A stretch of 62,065 bases of DNA from an uncultured Campylobacterales bacterium (lineage in GTDB: Bacteria > Campylobacterota > Campylobacteria > Campylobacterales > CAZCQG01): positions 12,853 to 74,917 of the forward strand of contig CAZCQG010000005.1 in the NCBI GenBank assembly GCA_964500775.1. Direction: 5' to 3'. Below are positions 35,717 to 52,235 of this stretch, one piece after another. The notes beneath the pieces are model-generated. The model did no database searches. It saw only the letters and a program-made list of their open reading frames with translations, and was not told the origin of the DNA. The position numbers and the translations under genes were made by a program. Within the stretch, counting starts at the first letter, position 1, and the number at the start of each line of letters is the position of its first letter.

Positions 35717-36010
35717 TTACATTGCTCCTGATATTTGAAACAGGAGTTTTACGAAAAAGAGATTGATAAACTGCAACGCGAGAATCACGATAATAGGGGC
35801 GATGTCTATACCTCCTATCATCGTAGGGACGTAGCGTCGGAGCTTCTCATACACCGGCTCGGTGAGGCGTCGCAAGATTTGGACTATCGGATTATACGGA
35901 TCCGGATTTACCCAAGTGATGAGGGCGGCAATGATGACGACCCAAATGTAGATGTTTATCACCATCCCCAAGATTTGCGCGATGGCTTGCAAAAGTGTTT
36001 CAAATACCAT
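35717..36010 (-). CDS. yggT: YggT family membrane protein
   Basis: ALITWVNPDPYNPIVQ...LTEP...GIDIAPI. Confidence 0.92.
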   Translation of the reverse strand: MVFETLLQAIAQILGMVINIYIWVVIIAALITWVNPDPYNPIVQILRRLTEPVYEKLRRYVPTMIGGIDIAPIIVILALQFINLFFVKLLFQISGAM

Positions 36011-36018
36011 TTCGACTC

Positions 36019-37317
36019 CTAATATATTATGTTTTTGAGGTGCGTTTTTATCACCGGATAGAGCTCGCTTAGCTCCGCGCCGTGTTCGCTATTAGTGAGG
36101 AGATAGCGGAGCGGTTTGAAGAGATTCTTCCCTTTGAGACCGCTTTTTTCCACGAGGGCGTTTTTGAGCGTATCGTAACTCTCTAGGTTTTTATCGTTGG
36201 AATCTATCATATCCAAAAAGAGCGACTTTAAGGTTGCAAACCCTTCCGCGTACTCTTCTGGAGCGCTTTTTTGGGCAAAAATGGGCAAGACGTTTTGTTT
36301 AAGCTCTTCTAGCGTGGAGCTTTGGTCTTTGTAGAAATCTACTACGTTTTCTAACTCCGATTCTAATCCCATCTCTTGCGCAAGGAGCTTAGAATCTAAC
36401 ATCTTGATGTGTCCGCGATTGATAAATCGGAGCTTGTCGATTGAGAACTTCGCGGGGGCTTTGGAGATATTGGCAATCTCGTAGAATCCCGCCGCTTCGT
36501 CCAACGTAAAAACCTCGCGCTCCATACTGTTGCCTAACAGCAAAAGGTAATTGGCAATCGCATCAGGTAAGAATCCCGATTCTAAAAGCCACTTCACGCT
36601 TGAGGCGTTATCGCGCTTGCTCATCTTTTTCCCTTCGTCGTTCAAGATGATAGGAAGGTGGGCGTAGCGCATCACGGATTCACTTCCGAGGCATCTTTGG
36701 ATGTGTATCTGACGCGGGGTGTTACTCAAATGATCTTCGCCGCGGACTATGTAGGTGATGCCGTAGTGCAGGTCATCCACCGCACACGCCATATTGTAGG
36801 TAGGCGTACCGTCGGCACGAAGAATCACGAAGGGGTCGAGCTCCTCTTTGTCGATGCAAAATTCGCCGCGGATTTCGTCTTTGAAACTAATAGATTCTTT
36901 GGGTTGGCAGATGCGCACCACAAACTCGGGATTCTCCCCTTTTTGCAGCTCTGCCCAAGCTATGTCGTAGCGGAAGGGCTGCTTATTATTTGCCGCCTCC
37001 TCCCGTTTTGCGTCCAAAAACTCTTTGGTGCAGTGGCATTTAAACGCCAAACCTTTCTCCAAAAGCTCCTGCGCTTTTTGTCTGTGGAGTTCTAGATTGC
37101 CGCTTTGGTAGACCACTTCGTTGTATGCGATTCCAAACAAATCGAGAATCTCCAATATCTCCTTATCCTTACCGGGGATATTGCGCTCTTTGTCGGTGTC
37201 TTCGATACGGATAAGTATGTCGATCCCTAGCTGCTTGGACAATAGGGCGTTCATCACCGCCGCACGGAGGTTTCCTATGTGCATATCTCCCGTAGGACTG
37301 GGGGCAAATCGTAGCAT
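36019..37317 (-). CDS. gltX: Glutamate--tRNA ligase 2 (Campylobacterota second GluRS)
   Basis: MLRFAPSPTGDMHIGNLR, LIRIEDTD, RGEDHLSNT, KKMSKR; start matches the recalled Helicobacter GluRS2. Confidence 0.93.
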   Translation of the reverse strand: MLRFAPSPTGDMHIGNLRAAVMNALLSKQLGIDILIRIEDTDKERNIPGKDKEILEILDLFGIAYNEVVYQSGNLELHRQKAQELLEKGLAFKCHCTKEFLDAKREEAANNKQPFRYDIAWAELQKGENPEFVVRICQPKESISFKDEIRGEFCIDKEELDPFVILRADGTPTYNMACAVDDLHYGITYIVRGEDHLSNTPRQIHIQRCLGSESVMRYAHLPIILNDEGKKMSKRDNASSVKWLLESGFLPDAIANYLLLLGNSMEREVFTLDEAAGFYEIANISKAPAKFSIDKLRFINRGHIKMLDSKLLAQEMGLESELENVVDFYKDQSSTLEELKQNVLPIFAQKSAPEEYAEGFATLKSLFLDMIDSNDKNLESYDTLKNALVEKSGLKGKNLFKPLRYLLTNSEHGAELSELYPVIKTHLKNIIY

Positions 37318-37446
37318 TTTGGCATCTCCCTTGAAGTAAAATCGCGATTGTACCAAAATAGACTAAAGGGGATTTGAGCTGCCTTTTTGTGCGGCATATT
37401 TTTCATACGGGAAAACTACGGGCGAAAAGAGATAGCTCAAATCGCA

Positions 37447-38787
37447 CTAGAGTATGACTTCGACTTTTGTACCTTCATTGAGTTTAGAATCGATGCGCAG
37501 AGTTCCGTTATGGATTTCGACGATCTGTTTTACAAGGCTTAATCCAAGCCCAAATCCATCAAAACGCCTGCTTCTGGCTTTATCGACGCGATAAAATCTA
37601 TGGGTTATTTTCAAAAGATCTTCTTCAGCGATTCCGATACCGTTATCTTCGACGATAAAATGGATGCCTTCATCTTTATAAAGTCGTATGTCAATATGCG
37701 CGGATTGGGGTTTTGAATACTTGATGGCATTATCGATAATGTTGTGAAATAGCGAATAGACGAGCGATTCGTCACTTTGAACGGCTATCGGTTCTATCGC
37801 CGAAAGGGTCAGTTTGATATTTTTATCAATCGCCTTGCTATTGAGTTTTTCTATACAATTGAGCAATATTACGTCAATATCGACACTCTTTTTTAATTCG
37901 TCTAGCTTATTTTTATCATAATAATTGAGCATCAAAAGAGAGTGTACGATTTTTGTGAGCAATCCACTCTCTTGCTTGATAGTTTTTAAAGTTTGGATAT
38001 ATTCTTCACTTGTTCTCTCTTTCTTTAATATAACGTCAACTTCGCCGTTTATCACGGTTAAAGGCGTTTGGAATTCATGAGAAACGTCGCTATTAAATCT
38101 CTCTATTCTTAGTATCCCCTCTTTTAATCTCTCTATCATCGAGTTGAATGTTTTTGCCAATTTATCCATCTCTTTGTATTCATTTCGTATCGGTATCGAG
38201 GTGTCTAAATTATTTACGGTGATTTGATTTGCCGTATTTGTCATCGTATGGATGGGAATTAGTACCTTATCTACCAATTTTGACGTAAAGAAGAGTATGC
38301 TCAATAACACGATAACGGTTAGTACGATTATGATTCCGATGATTGATTCTGCTCCTTGATCGACATCCTCTTGGTATACGATGAGCATCAAAGGAGTATT
38401 GTCTTGGCGGATACAGTAGAGTGCGCTTTTATACTCTATTTCATCGATAATAAAAAAGGCTACGTCTTGATTCTCGCACGCTAGGAAGTGTTTTTTTGAC
38501 GATTTGCTATCGCTAGCCAAAATCGTATTTGTTTGTATATTTACGATTTGAAATCCGGTGCTATCGGCATACTCGTTAAAAATCCTAGTTTGCAAACTTT
38601 CAGAATCTAGCATCGGTAATACGGTGCTTTCTAATAATTCCGCACTATTAGAGAGTTTGAGTTCGATTTGGGATTGTAAGTTTTGGGTTAGGAGTACATA
38701 AAAAAATACGTTAAAGAAAAATAGAATAAAAAAGAGAACGCTTCCAAACCAAACAAGTATACTCGTCTTTAAGCTTTTATGCTTCAA
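37447..38787 (-). CDS. HAMP sensor histidine kinase
   Basis: Two TM segments, HAMP, DVSHEFQTPL, NIIDNAIKY, DNGIG, GFGLGL. Confidence 0.93.
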   Translation of the reverse strand: MKHKSLKTSILVWFGSVLFFILFFFNVFFYVLLTQNLQSQIELKLSNSAELLESTVLPMLDSESLQTRIFNEYADSTGFQIVNIQTNTILASDSKSSKKHFLACENQDVAFFIIDEIEYKSALYCIRQDNTPLMLIVYQEDVDQGAESIIGIIIVLTVIVLLSILFFTSKLVDKVLIPIHTMTNTANQITVNNLDTSIPIRNEYKEMDKLAKTFNSMIERLKEGILRIERFNSDVSHEFQTPLTVINGEVDVILKKERTSEEYIQTLKTIKQESGLLTKIVHSLLMLNYYDKNKLDELKKSVDIDVILLNCIEKLNSKAIDKNIKLTLSAIEPIAVQSDESLVYSLFHNIIDNAIKYSKPQSAHIDIRLYKDEGIHFIVEDNGIGIAEEDLLKITHRFYRVDKARSRRFDGFGLGLSLVKQIVEIHNGTLRIDSKLNEGTKVEVIL

Positions 38788-39433
38788 TTTTATACCCTAC
38801 TCCGCGCATAGATTTAATCATCTCTTTTCCGATTTTCTTCCTCAAATGGTATATCGTAACATTAATAACATTGGAGTTGATATACTCCTCGTTTGACCAA
38901 AGCTCATTTTCTATCATAGAGACCGAAACATAGCTCTTTTTGTGCTTTATCAAAAAAAGCAATAAAGAGTACTCTTTATTGCTAAGTTCAAGAAGCTTCT
39001 CCCCTTTTTCTACCTTTTTTTTATCCGTATCGATTGCCAAGTCACCGATTTTTATGGTATTTACGCCTTTGGATAGGTTTCTTCTGTACAGCGCCTCTAT
39101 CCTTGCTAGAAGTTCGTCATACTCAAAAGGTTTTTTTAAAAAATCATCCGCCCCTCCGTTGAGACTACTCACGATACTGCGCGTATCGGTTTTTGCGGTA
39201 AGCATCAATACGGGTGTCTGAATATTTTTTTCACGGATTCTGCTTAAAACTTCCAATCCCTCAATCTCCGGCAACATCCAATCCAAAATCGCGACATCGT
39301 AGCTATTTTGCTCCAACATATACACCCCTTCGCTCCCGTCTAAAGCGACATCAAGAGTGTGTCCATCTTCAATAAAACCCCTTTTTAAAAAAGATATTAT
39401 GTGTTCGTCATCCTCTATTAAAAGCAGCTTCAC
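38777..39433 (-). CDS. OmpR family response regulator
   Basis: LLIEDD, ILDWMLP, KPF, VTIYHLRKKI..MRGVGY. Confidence 0.95.
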   Translation of the reverse strand: MKLLLIEDDEHIISFLKRGFIEDGHTLDVALDGSEGVYMLEQNSYDVAILDWMLPEIEGLEVLSRIREKNIQTPVLMLTAKTDTRSIVSSLNGGADDFLKKPFEYDELLARIEALYRRNLSKGVNTIKIGDLAIDTDKKKVEKGEKLLELSNKEYSLLLFLIKHKKSYVSVSMIENELWSNEEYINSNVINVTIYHLRKKIGKEMIKSMRGVGYKIEA

Positions 39434-39483
39434 CCGTGCCCCCTAGTTTATCGTCTCTGTGTGATTGTATTGTAAAAATCCTA

Positions 39484-39530
39484 GATGAAACAGGGATGAA
39501 ATCTCATAAACTTTTCATCCTCAATTCATT
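39484..39530. promoter_or_regulatory. Putative OmpR-type binding sites in the divergent promoter
   Basis: GATGAAA at 39484 and 39495 (11 bp period); opposite-strand TTTCATC/ATTCATT at 39513 and 39524 (11 bp period). Confidence 0.55.
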
Positions 39531-39593
39531 TTCAAATTTTACAATCCCGCTTCGATCGAAAATCAAGAACAAAGAGGAGAGAAAAGCTCGGTA

Positions 39594-41532
39594 ATGGAAA
39601 AAATCAGCACTCAAATATTTCTAGGTCGTTTTCGTGGAGTGGGGCTATTTTTCTCTCTCTTCATTATCCTCTCATTTATCATTAGAACGACTCTTTTACT
39701 CTATTCTTTCGATGCACTCTCTGTCTCTATTTTTGCGATTTTGAAAATATATGCGGTCGGTCTATTTTTCGATATACAAGCCGCTAGTTTTTTTGCCCTC
39801 CCCTTTGTAGCGTATCTCATACTCATCCCCGACAAGATTTTCAATCATCCCATCCACAGATACATAAACTATTTTTTCTATTTTTGCGTCATCACCTCTC
39901 TTGTATTCAGCGACTTTTCGGAGTGGTTTTTTTGGGAAGAATTTGGAGTAAGGTTTAATTTTATCGCCGTTGATTATCTCATCTACACGCACGAAGTGAT
40001 CGGAAATATTCGAGAATCTTATCCGCTCCCAAGCTTATTGTCGGCAGTCGGGATTCTCTCGGGCATTATATTTTGGATTATCCTAAAAACGGGGGGGGTT
40101 GAAAATAGCGTTTGCGTCTCGTAGCGATATTGTATGGAGAGCAAAAAAAGGCGCTATTTTTATAGCATTACCTCTAACTTTTTTCTTTTTGTTTGACCAA
40201 GATATGATAAATGTTTCCGATAATCGTTTCAACAACGAGCTTAGCAAAAATGGAATCTACTCCCTTTTTTCCGCTTTTAGAAATAATAAATTGGATTACG
40301 ATGCTTTTTACCTCTCCAATCCGATAGAAGAATCCATCGGAATCGTAAGAAGCGAAGTCGCTACGAAAAACAGTAGATTTTTGGATAACAAAACTACACT
40401 TAGGGAAATCAAGGATTCTGCTTCGGAAACACCTCGAAATATCTTACTTATCACCGTAGAGAGCTTAAGCGCAGAGTATCTAGGGGTTTTTGGAAATAAA
40501 GAGCATCTTACACCGAATTTAGACGCGCTAGCTTCCAAAAGTTTACTTTTCGACAATTTCTACGCGACGGGGACTAGGACGGTCAGAGGGATGGAGGCGT
40601 TGATGCTAAGCATCCCTCCTACGCCGGGTAGAAGCATAGTGAAAAGACCCGATAACGAGGGTTTATTTACTATCGGAAGCGTGTTGCAAAAACGGGGATA
40701 TGATAATAAGTTTATTTATGGAGGGCACGGCTATTTTGACAATATGAATGCATTTTTTGAAGGCAACGGCTTTAAAGCGATAGATAGACTTGACTTTGAA
40801 GCAGACGAGGTTGCGTTTGAAAATATTTGGGGGGTTTGCGACGAAGACCTTTTTGCCAAAACTATTAAAGAGGCGGATAAAAGTTTCAAAGAAAACAAAC
40901 CGTTTTTTAGCTTTGTAATGACCACCTCCAACCACCGCCCCTACACCTATCCCGAAGGAAAAATAGACATCCCTTCCCATAGCGGGAGAAACGGCGCGGT
41001 CAAATACACGGATTACGCCATAGGGAAGTTTATAGAGAGCGCCAAGACGAAACCTTGGTTTGACAATACCCTTATCGTCATAGTAGCGGACCATTGTGCA
41101 GGAAGTGCGGGAAAGACGGAACTGCCCGTACAAAAATACCATATCCCCCTCATCGTCTTCAACCCAAAACTCATTTCCCCTCAAAAAATAGAGACGTTAA
41201 GCAGCCAAATAGACGTAGCTCCGACCCTTTTTGGATTGATGCACTTGAGTTATGTTAGCAGATTTTTCGGTCATGATATTTTGGATAGATCCGACACAAA
41301 AGAGCGCGCTTTTATAAGTAACTACCAAAAACTCGGGCTTTTAAACAAAGATAAGCTAGCAATCTTAAGCCCTGAATTCAAAAGTAGTTTTTACGATATA
41401 AATCTCACGAATGGCTCTATGAAAAGCGCTCAAACGGAAAATAGGTTGCTCTCTAGAGCCATAGCCGACTATCAGACGGCAGACTACTTGTATCAAAACA
41501 AACAATACGATGCGCAGATAAAAAGCCTCTAA
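39594..41532 (+). pseudogene. LTA synthase / phosphoglycerol transferase (sulfatase family), split by a frameshift at a G8 tract
   Basis: ORF1 (39594-40124) carries TM helices and EEFGVRFNFIAVDYL. ORF2 (40099-41532) carries ITVESLS, TRTVRG, TTSNH and VADH. G8 at 40091-40098; removing one G gives a single 645 aa frame. Confidence 0.85.
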
Positions 41533-41545
41533 GGGTACACGACTA

Positions 41546-41645
41546 CACGTTATAACACTTTTGTAATACTCAAAGATTAGATTCCCACCCTCGCTTTTCA
41601 TCGGTGCGGCATTTATCACGATCACTTCGATGCGGGCATTGCAAA
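41546..41645 (+). repeat. Decayed direct copy of the MCP promoter/5' region (42855-43048)
   Basis: 34/36 identity 41546-41581 vs 42855-42890; 15 bp identity 41590-41604 vs 42978-42992; 40 bp identity 41606-41645 vs 43009-43048. Confidence 0.9.
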
Positions 41646-41653
41646 AAAGGTGT

Positions 41654-41731
41654 AGTATCTAAAATAAAATACTTTTGGTATTGACTAATTAAAATATTTC
41701 TGACATACTAGGAGTATCTAAAATAAAATAC
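41654..41731 (+). repeat. 19 bp direct repeat upstream of the ATPase
   Basis: AGTATCTAAAATAAAATAC at 41654-41672 and 41713-41731. Confidence 0.85.
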
Positions 41732-41743
41732 CAAAGGGATTCT

Positions 41744-42814
41744 ATGAACTCACCGTTTCCTTATGATAGACTACCTACCAAAGAGGAGTTTTTCGGGCGA
41801 ACAGAGGAGCTAACGAAGCTCTCGCGATTTACCGACCACTCCAACAATCTCCTCGTCCACTCCAAAAGGCGTATGGGCAAAAGCGCACTTATCCGCACAT
41901 TTTTCGCCCAAATATCTAGCCCCGCCCTTTGTATCTATGCCGATATTTTCGACATCGCTTCCAAAGAGGATTTTGCGCGTACGCTCCTCAAAGCCCTCTC
42001 CAATGCGCAAAAAGGGGATTTGAAATCGAATATCAAAAAACTCGCATCGCTTTTTAAACGCGTGCGCCTTGAACCCTCTATCGACGCAAATACACTTGAA
42101 TATTCTATCAAGCCCATCGTGACGACGCTCTCGTTTGAGCAGATGATGGAGGATTTTTTCGGCACCCTTAGCGAACTATCAAAAAGTCAAAAAATCATCC
42201 TAGCCATCGATGAATTTCAGCAAATAGATACCCTAACCGACATCAAACTCGATGCGTTTTTACGCCCCCATATCCAAAACCGCGTCAATATCTCTTATAT
42301 TTTTCTAGGCTCCAAACGCCATCTCCTTACCTCGCTTTTTGAATACAAATCCCCGCTATATGAGCTTGCCACCCATTTTGAGTTGGGCGCATTGAAAATA
42401 GATGATATTTACGCCTACGCGAAAAAGCACATCGACATCACTTATGAACAGTGCGAGTACATCTATACTCGAAGCGATGGGGAGACACGGATGATACAAA
42501 ACATCTTGCACCTACTCTACCTCGACAAAACGACCCGTATCGACGATGCGATAGAGGAGACCATCGCCTCTAAAGATGCGAGCTATCGGATGCTCTTTGA
42601 CACATTAGCCAACAACCAAAAAATCGCCCTTAAGATCGTCGGCAAAAATAAAAGTGGATTCTTTGCCCAAGAGGTGCTAAACGACTACAACATCAAAAAA
42701 CAGACGCTCCAATCTGCCCTTGACACCCTTTTTAAAAAAGAGCTTATCGACAAAGACGGCGAGGGGTATTTTATCCCCGATAGAACGCTAGAGCTATGGG
42801 TAGCGAGGCTTTAG
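41744..42814 (+). CDS. Archaeal-type AAA/STAND-like ATPase with C-terminal winged helix
   Basis: FFGRTEEL, Walker A variant SKRRMGKS, Walker B ILAIDEFQ, IFLGS; HTH-like tail ALDTLFKKELI....YFI.D. Confidence 0.8.
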   Translation: MNSPFPYDRLPTKEEFFGRTEELTKLSRFTDHSNNLLVHSKRRMGKSALIRTFFAQISSPALCIYADIFDIASKEDFARTLLKALSNAQKGDLKSNIKKLASLFKRVRLEPSIDANTLEYSIKPIVTTLSFEQMMEDFFGTLSELSKSQKIILAIDEFQQIDTLTDIKLDAFLRPHIQNRVNISYIFLGSKRHLLTSLFEYKSPLYELATHFELGALKIDDIYAYAKKHIDITYEQCEYIYTRSDGETRMIQNILHLLYLDKTTRIDDAIEETIASKDASYRMLFDTLANNQKIALKIVGKNKSGFFAQEVLNDYNIKKQTLQSALDTLFKKELIDKDGEGYFIPDRTLELWVARL

Positions 42815-42939
42815 AGGCGCTACCTCGCTAAGACCCGTACTTTGTGACCAAAATCACGTTATAACACTTTTGTAATACTTCAAGATTAGAATCACCGATA
42901 TTTTCCCACTTTTCGCATATCAAATCTCGGGAGTATCTA

Positions 42940-44583
42940 TTGAAGAATCTAACGATCAAACTACGGCTTATCCTCCTCTCGCTTTTCATCGGCGCAGGCG
43001 TCATCGGGGCGGCATTTATCACGATCACTTCGATGCGGGCATTGCAAAGCGAGTACGACGCTACGCTAGAGCTTAGCAGGAGTATAGAGAGTATCTCGCT
43101 CCTCATAGAGAGCGGAGAGCTCGTCAATAACTCAGTACAAGTCTATGTAAACAACTCCATCGAAATGGAAGCTGTAAAGCGCATCAAAGAGGGGCTGGAC
43201 GGATTTATAAAAAGTTCGTCAGATTTGGAAAAGCGGGATGCGGATTTGGTGAAAAAACTCGAATCCGACGCAAAAGCGTTTTTGACAAAAGGGGAAGAGC
43301 TATACAAAAAAGCGAACGATATAGGCTTTTTGCCTCAAAGCGACGGGGGAAGTATGGCGGAGGCGTGGAGCAAGGTAAAAACGGTCTTGGGTGAAATAAA
43401 AAAGGAGAAAGAGAACAAGATAAAAGAGGATGAGGTCTTATACGGCGAGCACCTCACGAAAACCGCCCTCATCATCCTCGCAGGACTGTTCGCGATTTTG
43501 GTCATCACTGTTTTGACGAGCTTTACGATAGTTAGAAGGATTATAAAAGAGATACGAAAATTTCAAAACGGTCTTATCGGATTCTTCGGATTCCTCAATC
43601 ACACCTCAAAAGAAGCCGCCCTTTTGGATGATAGCGCAAGAGATGAACTCGGCGCTATGGCAAAAGTGGTCAATGAGAATCTCCGTCACGTCCAAGAAGG
43701 GGTGAAGGTAGATGAGAGTTTTATACGCGATGTCGATAGATTTGCCAAAGAACTCGGAAACGGGAATTTTCAAACAAAAATAGAGCTAAGCGCGAGCAAT
43801 CCCTCTTTGCAAAGTCTCAAAGAGACGCTCATCACGGTACAAAAAGACCTCGAAAAAAATATCGCGCAAGACCTCAACAAACTCCTCTCCGTACTTGCGG
43901 AATTTACCGACAACAACTATAAGCCAAAGATAGCAAACGACGCGGGGAAGGTCGCAGAATCTATCAACCATCTCGGAGACGCTCTTGGTGCGATGCTGCG
44001 ACTCAACGCTCAAAACGCCGAGACCCTCTCTTCAAAATCGAATTTTCTCAAAGTAAAGATGGATGACCTAAGCGATGCGACCATAAAACAATCCGCCTCT
44101 ATCGAGCAGACAAGCACCACTATGGATAAAATGCGCGAAAGCATCCAAGATACCAACCAAAAATCAAGTCATCTTTTAGAGCAAACTACTAGCATCAAAG
44201 AGGTAGTAAGCATCATAAACGACATCGCCGATCAGACCAATCTCCTCGCGCTCAACGCCGCGATAGAGGCTGCGCGCGCGGGTGAGCACGGCAGAGGATT
44301 TGCCGTAGTCGCCGACGAGGTACGTAAACTCGCCGAAAAAACCCAACGAAGCCTCTCTGACATCTACGCCAACGTCAATCTCCTCACGCAATCCATCGAA
44401 GAGATAGTGGGGGAGATAAACGAACAAAGTACCTCCATCACCGAAGTAAACGACGCAATAGTCGAAATCGATAGCGCGATACAAGACAATGCCAAAATCG
44501 TAGAAGAGCTAAACAGCACCGCAAAAGAGGTGGATGACATATCTCAAACGATGTCAAACGAGGTGAAAAAAAGTAAGTTTTAA
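42940..44583 (+). CDS. Methyl-accepting chemotaxis protein
   Basis: Two TM segments, [45 protein letters not shown] start with GGAG. Confidence 0.96.
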
Positions 44584-48010: not shown

Positions 48011-48776
48011 AATTTTATCTAACTTCCATAAATAGGCTATTTGAAGCTATTTATTAACAAGGAAGAAATCGAAAAAGTACATTATAAAGTACATTAGTGA
48101 AATTGCTTAAACTCACTTAAGCATCTAAAGAGGCGTTGTTTATATACTAACATATTTCGGCAAAAAATGGAGCGTTTTTGTTAAAAGGCATTTTTCTATA
48201 CATAGTCCCGCTTTTTGGGCTTTTCATTTGCATTTTGTCTAGTAAAGATAACGGAATAAGAATGGCGATTATTTTTTATCAACGAGACTTATTTATCGAT
48301 AATATCGTACTTCAATAAAATATTTCCTCTATAATGTAACTTGAAATGTAACTATAATTTAGTAGCAACTTTTGAAAAGAGTTTTGTAAAAATGTTACTT
48401 CGCTAAGGTTTGCAAGATACCCCGATTTGATTCTAGACTCGGGGGTGGTACCCGTTTAAGTTTTCTCCTTGAGCGATTCTTTGGTATGTTTTGAAAACCA
48501 TTGTTTCATAACTTTTCTATCCTCTTTTTGATGCTTTTCAAATACTTTTTTGCCATTTAAGGTTATTTATCCTTAAAGTGGTGATTTCTAGCTAAATCTC
48601 TTAAGCTTAGAGTGTAAAAGTGCTATTTCATAGAGTAAACTTAAGTTATTGAATTAGTTAGATTATATTATTAAAATCTTCATTTAGGTTTTGGAGGGTA
48701 TCGGCTACCCCCCCCCTCATTTCACGGTCGAAATTATGGCTTTGGGTTAAATACCCCCAAAAATCCGTACCCAATA

Positions 48777-49490
48777 TTAAGCCGTAATTGCCTCTAAAAT
48801 CGATTTTATCTCATTTGTAGGTATTTGTATGCCCTCGCTCGCTTTTACTCGTTTTAGCACCCTACAAGTGATTTCTAAGCGATATACGGGATAGCTTAAC
48901 TCTGATTGTCTAGCTTTATCGTAGTATTTTACTCTCTCTATGTGCTCTAAACCTATGGGGCGGTTGAGGTAGTAGGTACTTTGAAACCAACTCCCACGCC
49001 CATATTTATTAAGGCACTTAATGTCTAGCGGTTTCTCAAAGTCTATCGCTAAATCAAAGCCACTTAATCCAAACTTGTAAAAGAGGCATTGGATAAAGTC
49101 GTAATCTCGCTTGGGCTTCTTGTATTGAGCTAAGCCGTAAGCCTCTATCTCATAAGTGCGCCCATTTTTTTCTTGGGATGGTTTGATTATCACTCCGTTA
49201 TCTGCTAGGTATCGCTTACCGCCACTTTTTTTATTTTTAGCATTGATAGAAACTTTTGTGTGTGGTCTCACTCGCTCAAATTTTTTATTATGCGACGATA
49301 GGAATCTATGAAATGTATCTCTGTACACTTGAGCTCGTAGAGTATCTATCCCTATAATATAATTACTAATATTACTTATATTATTACTTATACTAGGAAA
49401 ACCACTCGCTAAGCCACTCAATAACTCTTTAGCTATAACACCGCCAAAGCCTAAAGGCTCGGGGTGCGTGTGTGATTCTAAGCTGCTCAT
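48777..49490 (-). CDS. Putative Rep_trans-like replication initiator/relaxase
   Basis: Motif order IGIDTL ... FDLAIDF ... YYDKARQ ... YRLEIT resembles Rep_trans DxL / (R)xDxAxD / YxK / RxE. Confidence 0.55.
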   Translation of the reverse strand: MSSLESHTHPEPLGFGGVIAKELLSGLASGFPSISNNISNISNYIIGIDTLRAQVYRDTFHRFLSSHNKKFERVRPHTKVSINAKNKKSGGKRYLADNGVIIKPSQEKNGRTYEIEAYGLAQYKKPKRDYDFIQCLFYKFGLSGFDLAIDFEKPLDIKCLNKYGRGSWFQSTYYLNRPIGLEHIERVKYYDKARQSELSYPVYRLEITCRVLKRVKASEGIQIPTNEIKSILEAITA

Positions 49491-49531
49491 TTTTAGTGCC
49501 TTGAAGCATCAAAAACTTGTAGTTTTGGAAT

Positions 49532-49807
49532 CTAATATGCATTACAAGCTTTTGAGGCTTGTTTTGCTATACTTTTGGCTGTTGCTTTCGGCTCGATTAT
49601 TTCCAAAATCTCATTTAGTTTTTTTGGATTTAATCGGGCTATCTTGCATCGCTTCCCCTCTTTACTCCATTTTCTGATTATTAGCCCATCTTCCTCAAGT
49701 GGTATAAGGTATTGATTACCATTGGAGTAGGGGATTTGAGAGGCTGTAAGCTCTCCCATCTCTTTTATCATTCTCAATACTGTGAGCTTTATGGTGTGCT
49801 TAGTCAT
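49532..49807 (-). CDS. Small basic protein, probable winged helix
   Basis: VLRMIKEMGELTASQI...LIPLEEDGLIIRKW pattern; element-borne. Confidence 0.55.
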   Translation of the reverse strand: MTKHTIKLTVLRMIKEMGELTASQIPYSNGNQYLIPLEEDGLIIRKWSKEGKRCKIARLNPKKLNEILEIIEPKATAKSIAKQASKACNAY

Positions 49808-50097
49808 TCAGCACCCCCTAGAAGCTCTTGATAGAGCTCTTCTACCTCGTTTATCATCTTGATATTTGAGCTTAGAAGCTTTTTTATCCCATCATCTGTG
49901 AAGTATATGCTTAGCGTGGGCTCTACCCCGTTTACAGTAGTAAAAGCTCCAAATCCTACATTAAAGTCTTTTGTAAACTCAAGCTCTGAAAAATCAACAT
50001 TGTAAAGCTTAGTAGCATACTCGGGGGAGAATATCGCTCCCATACACTCATTAATACTTGCTTCTTGTATGGCTTTGAATTTATCGTAGATAGTCAT
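49804..50097 (-). CDS. Hypothetical element protein
   Basis: 97 aa ORF with ATGA overlaps on both sides. Confidence 0.65.
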   Translation of the reverse strand: MTIYDKFKAIQEASINECMGAIFSPEYATKLYNVDFSELEFTKDFNVGFGAFTTVNGVEPTLSIYFTDDGIKKLLSSNIKMINEVEELYQELLGGAE

Positions 50098-50261
50098 TCT
50101 CCACCCCCTAGAAGCTTTTGCACCTCTGATTCGGGTATAACTGTGACTCTGTCACTAATTTTGATAGATTTGAGTTTGCCTTGTTTAATCCAAAGCCAAA
50201 TAGTGGATTCTCCCACACCTAATTTTTCTTTGAGAGTTTTAACTCTATAATTTTTCTCCAT
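50094..50261 (-). CDS. AlpA/excisionase-like HTH protein (absent from the ORF track)
   Basis: 55 aa MEKNYRVKTLKEKLGVGESTIWLWIKQGKLKSIKISDRVTVIPESEVQKLLGGGE; its stop overlaps the next start. Confidence 0.8.
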   Translation of the reverse strand: MEKNYRVKTLKEKLGVGESTIWLWIKQGKLKSIKISDRVTVIPESEVQKLLGGGE

Positions 50262-50428
50262 CTGGAGTCCTTTCCTAGCTTCCTGCTAGTAGGACTTAAA
50301 GCTTTAAGATTTTAGCCTCAAGCATTAATTGGATTTACTTGTAGCTCTCTAATCGTCATTAGATTGTGCAAGTTTGGCATAACAGAAAGTAGTAGTTTTT
50401 GTGGTTTCCCCCATTTTGGGGAAAGTGC

Positions 50429-50968
50429 TTATTTTAGGGCTGTGAAGTAGTCTAAATATTCTTTTTTTGCTTCTTCTATTACTCCTTGTTTGTTTAGAAA
50501 AGCTCCTAATTCTTTATTTGTGGCTGTTATTTTTGTAGATTCTGTTGTATAGAAGTAGTGCTTTGGATTCTCCAAAAAGTCATTGATTATATTTATTAGC
50601 TCACTCCCTTTTTGTGTCTTTACCATATAATCCAAATCCTCTTTGACTTTTGATAGTCGCTCTTTGTTTCTAGCTATTAACTCTTTTTGGGTTTTCTTTT
50701 TTGTCTTTTTGCCGTTTTTTAATTTTCCAGCATCATCAAATTTTCGTGCTGCTTCCTTTGTGCCGATACTCATTAAATAATTTGAAGTGTGTATTAGTAA
50801 ATCCTCTATCTCTCCACTATCCCAATACTTCAAATATCGATTGTTTATAAGCCACGATTCTATGAAACTTTCGTGTCCTAACAAAGAGATGCAACCTACA
50901 TATTTTTTTATACTATTATTGTGTTTTTCAAATAGCTCTTTTAGCTTTTTTATATCATCTCGTTCCAT
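50429..50968 (-). CDS. Hypothetical element protein
   Basis: 179 aa Lys-rich ORF overlapping the integrase end by 14 nt. Confidence 0.65.
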   Translation of the reverse strand: MERDDIKKLKELFEKHNNSIKKYVGCISLLGHESFIESWLINNRYLKYWDSGEIEDLLIHTSNYLMSIGTKEAARKFDDAGKLKNGKKTKKKTQKELIARNKERLSKVKEDLDYMVKTQKGSELINIINDFLENPKHYFYTTESTKITATNKELGAFLNKQGVIEEAKKEYLDYFTALK

Positions 50969-52235
50969 TTTTTACCTCATCTAAAAAATCAGCGTACCAT
51001 TGCAATAACTCTCTCATTTGCTCGGTGTAATCCGCTCGGTGCGTATACGCTCTTACAACCCCGCTTTTTTCGTGGTGGTCTAAAACCCTCTCTTTTGCTT
51101 CAAACGTGGCGTTATGTTGGTTTTGATATGTGTCTACTAAGCTCCGATATGTGCCCCTAAAGCTATGTAAGGTTTGCTTCTTATTATTTGCCTTATCCCC
51201 ATACCCCATAATCCTTAACGCCTTATTTCCCGTCTCTTTGTTTATAGGGGCGTTGATGTCTTTTTTTCCGTGAAATACCCATCTACCCCACCCCGTGAGT
51301 TTCTTTATATCTTCTAGTATCTTTATGGCTTGATGCGATAATGGCAACACGAAGTCCGGCAGATTCTTATCTTTTAGTTTCATTTCGGAGCGTGGGATTC
51401 TTAGTACCTTTTTATCAAAATCTATTTGCTCCCATTGTAGATTACATAAGTTATCGGCTCTTAGGGGGACAATGCTTACAAACTTCAATAAAGCTCTCGT
51501 TATAGGTTCGCCGTGATAGTTGTCTATCTTTTGGAATAACTCTTGTAATGTTTCAATGTCGGTTATTTTCGAGTAACTACTTTTTTCGACCTTTTTAAGT
51601 GCGTTTTTTGAAATCTTTAGCGTTGCAAGCTCTTCCGTATATCCCCGCTCATACGCATATACCCATAAAGCCCTACAATCCGCTAAAAGCCTGTTCGCCG
51701 ATTCTATTGCCGTTTTCTCTTTTTGTTGTAAAACTTCTAATAGCTTGTAGTGCGTAATGTCGGAGATATTGAGAGATGAGGTTATATTATGGTCTTTGTC
51801 GTAGGTACAAAAGTGGGGGAATAAATCTCTTTCAAAATTTCGATATTTTCTATCTTTGTGTGTTTGGCTGCAAGTCAATCTATCGTAAATCCACTCTCTC
51901 ACTATCAAATGAAATTGATTACTTGATTGTTTTTTCTCTAGCTCTTTTTTTTCCCTATGGAAATTTATCGGGTCTACCCCCTCGGAAACTAAAGAGAGAT
52001 ATTCATCCCTTTTATCTCTTGCATCTTTTAATTTTACGGTAGGATAGTTTCCTAGTGTGGTTTTTTTGGCTTTTCCCTTTATCGTAAATCTAATCTCCCA
52101 AAGCTTGCTTCCGTTTGGTTTGATTAGCAACTGCAACCCGCCTCCATCTCTTAGCGTGTAATCTTTATCTTTAGGTTTTGCACTTCTTATCGTCTTATCG
52201 AGTAATAAGTTGCTTCCACGTTGCATATTAGCCAT
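50955..52235 (-). CDS. int: Tyrosine integrase (P4-like, with arm-binding domain)
   Basis: KPKDKDYTLRDGGGLQL..KPNGSKLW...LGNYPTVKLKDAR arm domain; catalytic R (PLRADN), HSFR, LDH, Y (VRAYTH). Confidence 0.95.
   Translation of the reverse strand: MANMQRGSNLLLDKTIRSAKPKDKDYTLRDGGGLQLLIKPNGSKLWEIRFTIKGKAKKTTLGNYPTVKLKDARDKRDEYLSLVSEGVDPINFHREKKELEKKQSSNQFHLIVREWIYDRLTCSQTHKDRKYRNFERDLFPHFCTYDKDHNITSSLNISDITHYKLLEVLQQKEKTAIESANRLLADCRALWVYAYERGYTEELATLKISKNALKKVEKSSYSKITDIETLQELFQKIDNYHGEPITRALLKFVSIVPLRADNLCNLQWEQIDFDKKVLRIPRSEMKLKDKNLPDFVLPLSHQAIKILEDIKKLTGWGRWVFHGKKDINAPINKETGNKALRIMGYGDKANNKKQTLHSFRGTYRSLVDTYQNQHNATFEAKERVLDHHEKSGVVRAYTHRADYTEQMRELLQWYADFLDEVKNGTR

Follow-up and report, generated by a model that had tools for sequence, protein, structure and literature searches.

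The closest described systems to the locus reported here are the poly-G genes of Campylobacter and the LTA synthases. In the passages of PMC6321876 on which we draw, the PhasomeIt cut-off is a G/C run of 7. The core phasome of C. coli, as listed there, includes a phosphoglycerol transferase whose tract is G8-9. The G/C tracts of C. jejuni peak at G9-G10, according to the portion of the source available (PMC3401435). For the LTA synthases, the roles of the LtaS-type catalytic residues are taken from an excerpt of PMC4192460. The halves of S. aureus LtaS, cut after the membrane domain and expressed separately, are reported not to restore activity (PMC10865820). An H. pylori LTA synthase family gene, likened to the gene below by family name, is described as CrdR-dependent in the quoted sections of PMC9927306. 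In the literature searched, we found nothing on point on phase variation in environmental Campylobacterota, and no direct precedent for split LTA synthases or for the fixed two-gene form found in the Cyclobacteriaceae (see below).

Here we describe an envelope enzyme gene that is broken at a G-run in a contig of an uncultured Campylobacterales bacterium. The assignment to this order is based on best hits, which fall in Sulfurovum and Sulfurimonas. The whole stretch of DNA analyzed, 62,065 nucleotides, is called the window, and its features are listed in Table 1. The frameshift site is a run of exactly eight G with A5-C just 5' of it. ORF1 contains predicted helices 1-4 and the conserved periplasmic loop, and ORF2 the rest of the enzyme. 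The first-pass annotation had the two ORFs one base out of frame at this run, with seven or ten G restoring one 645 aa protein, and both statements were borne out. The ORFs are offset by one base at the G8 and overlap by 26 nt, and among the tract lengths computed (5-12) only 7 and 10 give a single ORF (645 or 646 aa). The tract is an in-gene G/C run of at least 7 that sets the reading frame, and it lies at nt 498 of the gene.

Table 1. Coordinates of the features discussed (window positions unless a locus is named).
Feature	Position	Strand	Description
G8 run	40091-40098	+	frameshift site
ORF1	39594-40124	+	N-terminal membrane half, 176 aa, including an 8-residue out-of-frame tail
ORF2	40099-41532	+	TTG start, 477 aa; predicted helix 5 and alkaline-phosphatase-fold catalytic domain
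Sensor histidine kinase	37447-38787	-	HAMP-HisKA-HATPase, 446 aa; TTG start overlaps the regulator gene
OmpR-family response regulator	38777-39433	-	218 aa, divergent from the enzyme gene
Likely promoter of the two-component operon	39469-39500	-	TTCATY-N5-TTCATY (39484-39500), 9 nt, TACAAT; putative function
Likely regulator-activated promoter of the enzyme gene	39514-39545	+	TTCATY-N5-TTCATY (39514-39530), 9 nt, TACAAT; putative function
Natural two-gene loci	L296:2923-4827, L302:2968-4884, L305:65-1963	n/a	N-half of 166-169 aa and C-half of 464 aa

Both halves are intact and keep their catalytic motifs (TVESL, GTRTVRGME, TTSNHRP, and VADH), as annotated earlier. The read-through protein, with X at the break, matches 132 of the 135 columns that are conserved in at least 95% of the aligned full-length homologs. 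It departs from the near-invariant residue at three columns, twice by Y>F and once by Y>D. Against the homologs the loop at the break is of normal length and without indel, and there is one 2-residue gap elsewhere. The 120 homologs listed are mostly single proteins of ~630-660 aa at 52-59% identity. The gene has no second lesion, which suggests that the frameshift is probably recent. The adjacent A5 run is an equally possible place for the lost frame, and the homologs leave this choice undecided.

A homology census gave the window locus as the only clear frameshift against 876 intact conserved loci; its references, 2.0 of the 2.25 Mb of genome G003 plus loci L002-L099, bias it to core genes, so that accessory genes are under-sampled. 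The census also listed four other frame-change candidates, one spanning an N gap and three from short queries (131-172 aa) that resemble shadows, and 19 single-stop rows besides; taken as a group, these additional rows appear to be gaps or shadows. The coincidence of the G8 with the only clear frameshift among these loci indicates slippage as its cause. A search of the 99% complete genome recovered 11 of 14 controls but no MutS1 or MutL domain. Slippage, which the first-pass annotation had assumed, is the likely cause of the frameshift. Programmed -1 ribosomal frameshifting at the G8 was ruled out, since joining the frames needs +1. A codon-model frameshift screen missed the window locus, its positive control, and its 85 candidates were discarded.

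Homopolymers are error-prone in sequencing, and this general property favors a reading in which the one-piece gene is the true allele and the additional G arose by error in sequencing or assembly. Logan contigs of four runs (X1-X4), none of them RNA, cover this stretch; that all four come from one sludge study, which may be the source of the assembly itself, also counts for an error. Against it, the separate assemblies of two runs, from different samples, bridge the tract as G8 with 0 gaps and 0 other letters: X2 record 13 (39938-40496, depth 5.9) and X3 record 21 (39935-40213, depth 6.8). The contigs of all four runs list no insertions or deletions over 36000-43000, and the rest of the genome is nearly frameshift-free. 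No bridging contig was present in X1 or X4 among 32 of 69 pieces, which we do not take as a sign of a mixed population. Contigs lose rare alleles, so these data show G8 as the majority allele and not as a uniform one. These contigs give no support to G7 as the true allele, an error is very improbable, and we confirm that the frameshift at the G8 is real. Elsewhere in these contigs, those of three runs join 43000 back to 41598, with a loose end at 41645 in all four. At this place an AAA ATPase gene (41744-42814) lies between direct repeats at 41546-41645 and 42854-43048, one of 48 nt with 98% identity and one of 39 nt with 92%, and the join is either a repeat effect or a recent insertion/excision.

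ORF2 has a PF00884 domain (E 1.1e-50), the only match to this family in the genome, and homologs carry the names LTA synthase family or MdoB-like. The catalytic positions, aligned to S. aureus LtaS, are E121, T161, H279, D331, and H332 (metal ligands Glu, Asp, and His; Thr nucleophile; catalytic His), with the Thr register shifting by one between two alignments. With the predicted multi-helix N-terminal membrane domain, these features support membership in the broad LTA-synthase/MdoB-like group of membrane phospho-transferases, and at this broad level the earlier family assignment stands. The best curated models of ORF2 are OpgB and LtaS, both far below their NCBIfam cut-offs. The LtaS polymerase equivalog NF053595 scored 68 bits with ORF2 alone (cut-off 970), and OpgB/MdoB 90 bits (cut-off 572). 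Of the second glycerol-phosphate site of LtaS (Ser/Asn/His), the ORF2 sequence DHCAGSAGK retains Ser alone, and the phosphate-pocket His/Trp/Arg of LtaS are absent from YGGHGYFDNM. OpgG (PF04349), of the periplasmic glucan pathway, was not found in the genome.

The modification had first been described as of phosphoglycerol or phosphoethanolamine type. Of the two, phosphoglycerol is at most a candidate. Phosphoethanolamine is unlikely because ORF1 has no Pfam match to the EptA/EptB N-domain PF08019, which a neighboring EptA in one homolog locus (L065) does match; no EptA/EptC-type phosphoethanolamine transferase was found genome-wide. By analogy with its family, the enzyme probably takes a phospho-headgroup from a membrane lipid and passes it to an acceptor in the envelope. 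The neighbors of the homologs, which include PAP2 (11/80 loci), diacylglycerol kinase (8/80), and EptA (4/80), are consistent with lipid-headgroup transfer.

The best model of the divergently encoded kinase is the CusS/CzcS-like TIGR01386, below cut-off. The two promoter arms are mirror images in the 160-nt intergenic gap, with matches at 24 of 34 positions. The exact tandem box has four matches genome-wide, two of them in this gap; a box-like match at C36:12220 is inside an ORF and was set aside. When one mismatch is allowed, the box lies upstream of 16/35 homologs with a regulator in the locus vs. 8/112 without (147 of the 160 loci had sufficient upstream DNA), and the Fisher p of 9e-7 for this association is overstated because kin are not independent. 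A regulator or kinase is within 4 kb in 25 of 80 genome homolog loci. That the divergent pair controls the enzyme gene, as had been proposed, is well supported by the mirror-image arrangement, with binding presumably at the putative boxes. The boxes and both two-component genes are intact. The G+C content of the kinase, regulator, and enzyme genes (37447-41532) is 36-41%, against 43% for the genome and 48% for gltX. The block is possibly an acquired cassette.

An alignment of 88 sequences has five hydrophobic segments, and the tract lies in the loop of ~20-23 residues between segments 4 and 5. The membrane topology was derived from hydropathy and charge. The loop is Lys/Arg-rich (mean 5.5 Lys/Arg vs. 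1.3 acidic residues) and is hence predicted to be cytoplasmic. It takes up 23 of the 645 codons (3.6%). It is slip-prone in other lineages too, as seen in A7 runs and in the pair P0134 and P0245: P0134 ends at a Lys run in this loop, and the near-identical P0245 reads through.

The homologs include a natural two-gene form that is split in the same loop. Of the 80 genome homolog loci, 78 have a single ORF; of the other two, one runs into the end of its contig and one is interrupted by stop codons. In the 80 metagenome loci, 73 have one ORF across the loop, three end at a contig edge, and four are split. The two-gene loci of Table 1 make up three of the four splits; in them the C-half begins just before helix 5 and the stop codons differ, with two consecutive stops in L302. 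Between these loci the halves are 65-88% and 78-83% identical, synonymous sites are saturated, and dN/dS is 0.046 in the single measurable pair, which indicates that both halves are under purifying selection. The pattern for the Glu-Ser motif has no match in any of the three, and the other three catalytic motifs are kept. Eight N-only sequences form one clade (100/99) with a full-length sister, and the three that are named are all Cyclobacteriaceae. Evidently, this enzyme family can work in two parts, one a module of four helices and the other a catalytic module with a single helix. In window numbering, the natural N-halves stop at residues 168-170, and the window tract is at 166-168; the natural C-half start is 8 codons behind the window TTG. 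The window gene is outside the split clade in the tree, so its split would be an independent event. Among 19 close homologs from 300 Campylobacterales genomes we did not find the split form: 18 have a single ORF, and the remaining one runs off its contig. Four candidates were not counted as natural splits. L039 has its stops near a contig end, L260 has a late frameshift, and G201 is at a contig end; in L295, which lies on a contig of only 2.5 kb, the frame changes in helix 5.

The first-pass annotation had inferred from the tract a candidate ON/OFF switch. Fast reversible slippage would give a mixed population, with the envelope modification ON (7 or 10 G) or OFF (8 or 9 G), on top of two-component control. 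The tract reaches the PhasomeIt cut-off of 7, the missing MutS1 and MutL domains would suit fast slippage, and this is an envelope gene that is intact apart from the frame break. The C. coli phosphoglycerol transferase would be a precedent, likened by description only from the passages of PMC6321876. The counts of G/C runs across the genome speak against such a switch. They fall smoothly with length (7: 23, 8: 5, 9: 1), as opposed to the G9-G10 peak given for C. jejuni in the excerpt above. Runs of at least 7 number 29 vs. ~56 expected from an order-4 Markov model, and runs of at least 8 number 6 vs. ~10 expected; the G8 run alone is not above chance in this genome. We did not find a genome-wide excess of long G/C tracts in surface genes (a phasome). 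There are G7/C7 runs in frame inside ispG and murJ and a G8 inside an intact dapF (G000 C29:8114; L102:1001-1735).

The allele itself also fits poorly. At C. jejuni rates, as far as the available portions of the published sources give them, we computed that a neutral tract settles at 49% G9, 28% G10, and 15% G8, and that a G8 clone has lost its majority in ~1000 divisions. Contrary to this expectation of G9, the majority allele here is G8, in the assembly and in both informative runs. In homologs, all of them distant (at most 58% identical), the loop was free of G/C runs of 6 or longer at the 79 genome loci and 80 metagenome loci examined. No same-family genome was found, and an exact-flank search of metagenome contigs for the tract gave no match. 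No tract-length variants were seen in the contigs, a weak point, since contigs at depth 6-7 are unable to reveal minority alleles. The evolved switch was thus not upheld, and we consider true phase variation unlikely. The OFF state is unproven as well, because the break mirrors the natural two-gene form of the family. The evidence shows neither an evolved switch nor that the allele is off. Among the remaining runs of the genome, the only C9 is not in an ORF; it is found where a small element with an integrase gene has its border (window 48708-52235). Intergenic G7-G8 runs stand, Shine-Dalgarno-like, just ahead of possible starts at G000 C17:4392, C22:16701, C11:56798, and C7:36792. Elsewhere in the genome, the minus strand of G000 C1:71683-98793 stays open for 9037 codons.

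We tentatively prefer a reading in which the split allele makes a leaky two-piece enzyme; the locus would then be a gene fission at its beginning, and not an evolved switch. In a genome seemingly without MutS1/MutL, replication would recently have slipped by one base at a G-run present by chance and so have cut the two-component-regulated gene of a five-helix envelope phospho-transferase in its cytoplasmic helix 4/5 loop. Ribosomes ending ORF1 would restart at the TTG, for which the G-run would serve as a ribosome-binding site at short spacing, and would go on to translate ORF2. The halves may then re-pair in the membrane and keep some activity, and we propose that the split allele is tolerated because of it. 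Both halves are intact, the break is in a fission-tolerant loop, and a start lies near the upstream stop. Re-initiation with a weak binding site is a recognized class of frame transition in the text available from PMC3711429.

TTG opens 37 of 221 reliable starts in the genome. The anti-SD pairing at the ORF2 TTG is -8.0 kcal/mol, a value equalled by 1.3% of 3369 internal TTG codons. This value needs a spacing of 3 nt (the pairing is -4.5 at 4 nt), and a spacing of 3 nt or less is found in only 10/109 starts. A 26-nt overlap occurs at 2/221 reliable starts. The site is more structured than 87% of starts, and we infer that its predicted hairpin would be opened by ribosomes reading ORF1. It is possible that the G8 run is the ribosome-binding site for this TTG. 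A restart at the ATG at 40204 would not be useful, as this codon is behind helix 5 and lacks anti-SD pairing.

Nearly tied with the two-piece enzyme is a plain recent null, which we regard as comparably possible. The same slip would have inactivated a dispensable accessory gene, with negligible restart; the allele would have drifted or swept in the sludge population and be becoming a pseudogene, with the tract as a mild hot spot. Close homologs are rare in the order (19 of 300 other genomes), and the gene is accessory, so that its loss is cheap. The lack of any excess of long G/C runs, the in-frame runs in ispG, murJ, and dapF, and the absence of another lesion, hence a recent event, all agree with a null, as do the short spacing and predicted hairpin at the start of ORF2. 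There are also further homologs with breaks (L039, L260, and L295). The junction in the window shows no remodeling, which counts against a two-piece enzyme, as do the lack of a split form among the Campylobacterales homologs, the place of the window gene outside the split clade, the slips in this loop in other lineages, and the reported failure of the separated LtaS halves, though those were cut elsewhere. A null leaves to chance, however, that the break falls in the small loop of natural fission with an in-frame start before helix 5. The break is also the only clear frameshift of the census, although the census is biased to core genes. Our ranking of these readings is a judgement that rests on this match of location (3.6%), discounted as it was noticed after the fact.

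A further reading joins slippage and fission. The G-run would be both slippery tract and ribosome-binding site, a phase-variable dial between a one-piece (7, 10) and a two-piece (8, 9) enzyme that tunes enzyme level and is not an ON/OFF switch. Length 8 gives the 26-nt overlap, and length 9 gives a 169-aa N-half whose stop overlaps the start by 4 nt (TTGA), the coupling geometry seen most often at the reliable starts of the genome. We hold this dial to be improbable. If it were true, the window would be a snapshot of a possible origin of the fixed Cyclobacteriaceae form. A working split allele would mean that phasome pipelines call OFF some frameshifts that are not. If phase variation or a null is correct, the locus is a minor annotation point; the poly-G phosphoglycerol transferase of C. 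coli is known, and a free-living case from sludge would merely widen the range. The four-helix and one-helix modules are a natural way to dissect an uncharacterized, widespread Gram-negative envelope enzyme.

The closest solved structure is VP1736 (PDB 3LXQ, uncharacterized), with E 1.7e-84 over ORF2 residues 36-472, and we found no literature on it. The protein is presumably from Vibrio parahaemolyticus, judging from the locus prefix, and has Ser where ORF2 has the Thr nucleophile. The next structures are LtaP and LtaS (PDB 4UOO, 4UOP, and 2W5Q). LtaS/LtaP and E. coli OpgB/MdoB share with the window enzyme the membrane domain, the alkaline-phosphatase-fold domain, the metal ligands, the Thr nucleophile, and the catalytic His, but the pocket His/Trp/Arg and second-site Asn/His of LtaS are absent from it.

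C. coli N149_0993 and the Campylobacter poly-G genes are like the window gene in having an in-gene G-run of at least 7 in an envelope-modifying gene of a host without MutS1/MutL, as far as the excerpted sources go (PMC6321876, PMC4687069, PMC3401435). The N149_0993 gene, of 1969 bp in those excerpts, is similar in size and is likened by description only. There the G8-9 tract sits 1728 nt into the gene, the genome shows a G9-G10 peak, and strains differ, whereas the window gene has one G8 at nt 498, no such peak, and no variation seen. The two-gene form of the Cyclobacteriaceae (L296, L302, and L305; P0148, P0153, P0162, P0168, and P0194) is split in the same helix 4/5 loop, into halves of 166-172 and 464 aa compared to 176 and 477 aa in the window. 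The Cyclobacteriaceae split is old and remodeled, with in-frame stops and an ATG start, whereas that of the window is a new frameshift, and its downstream half starts at TTG and overlaps the upstream one by 26 nt.
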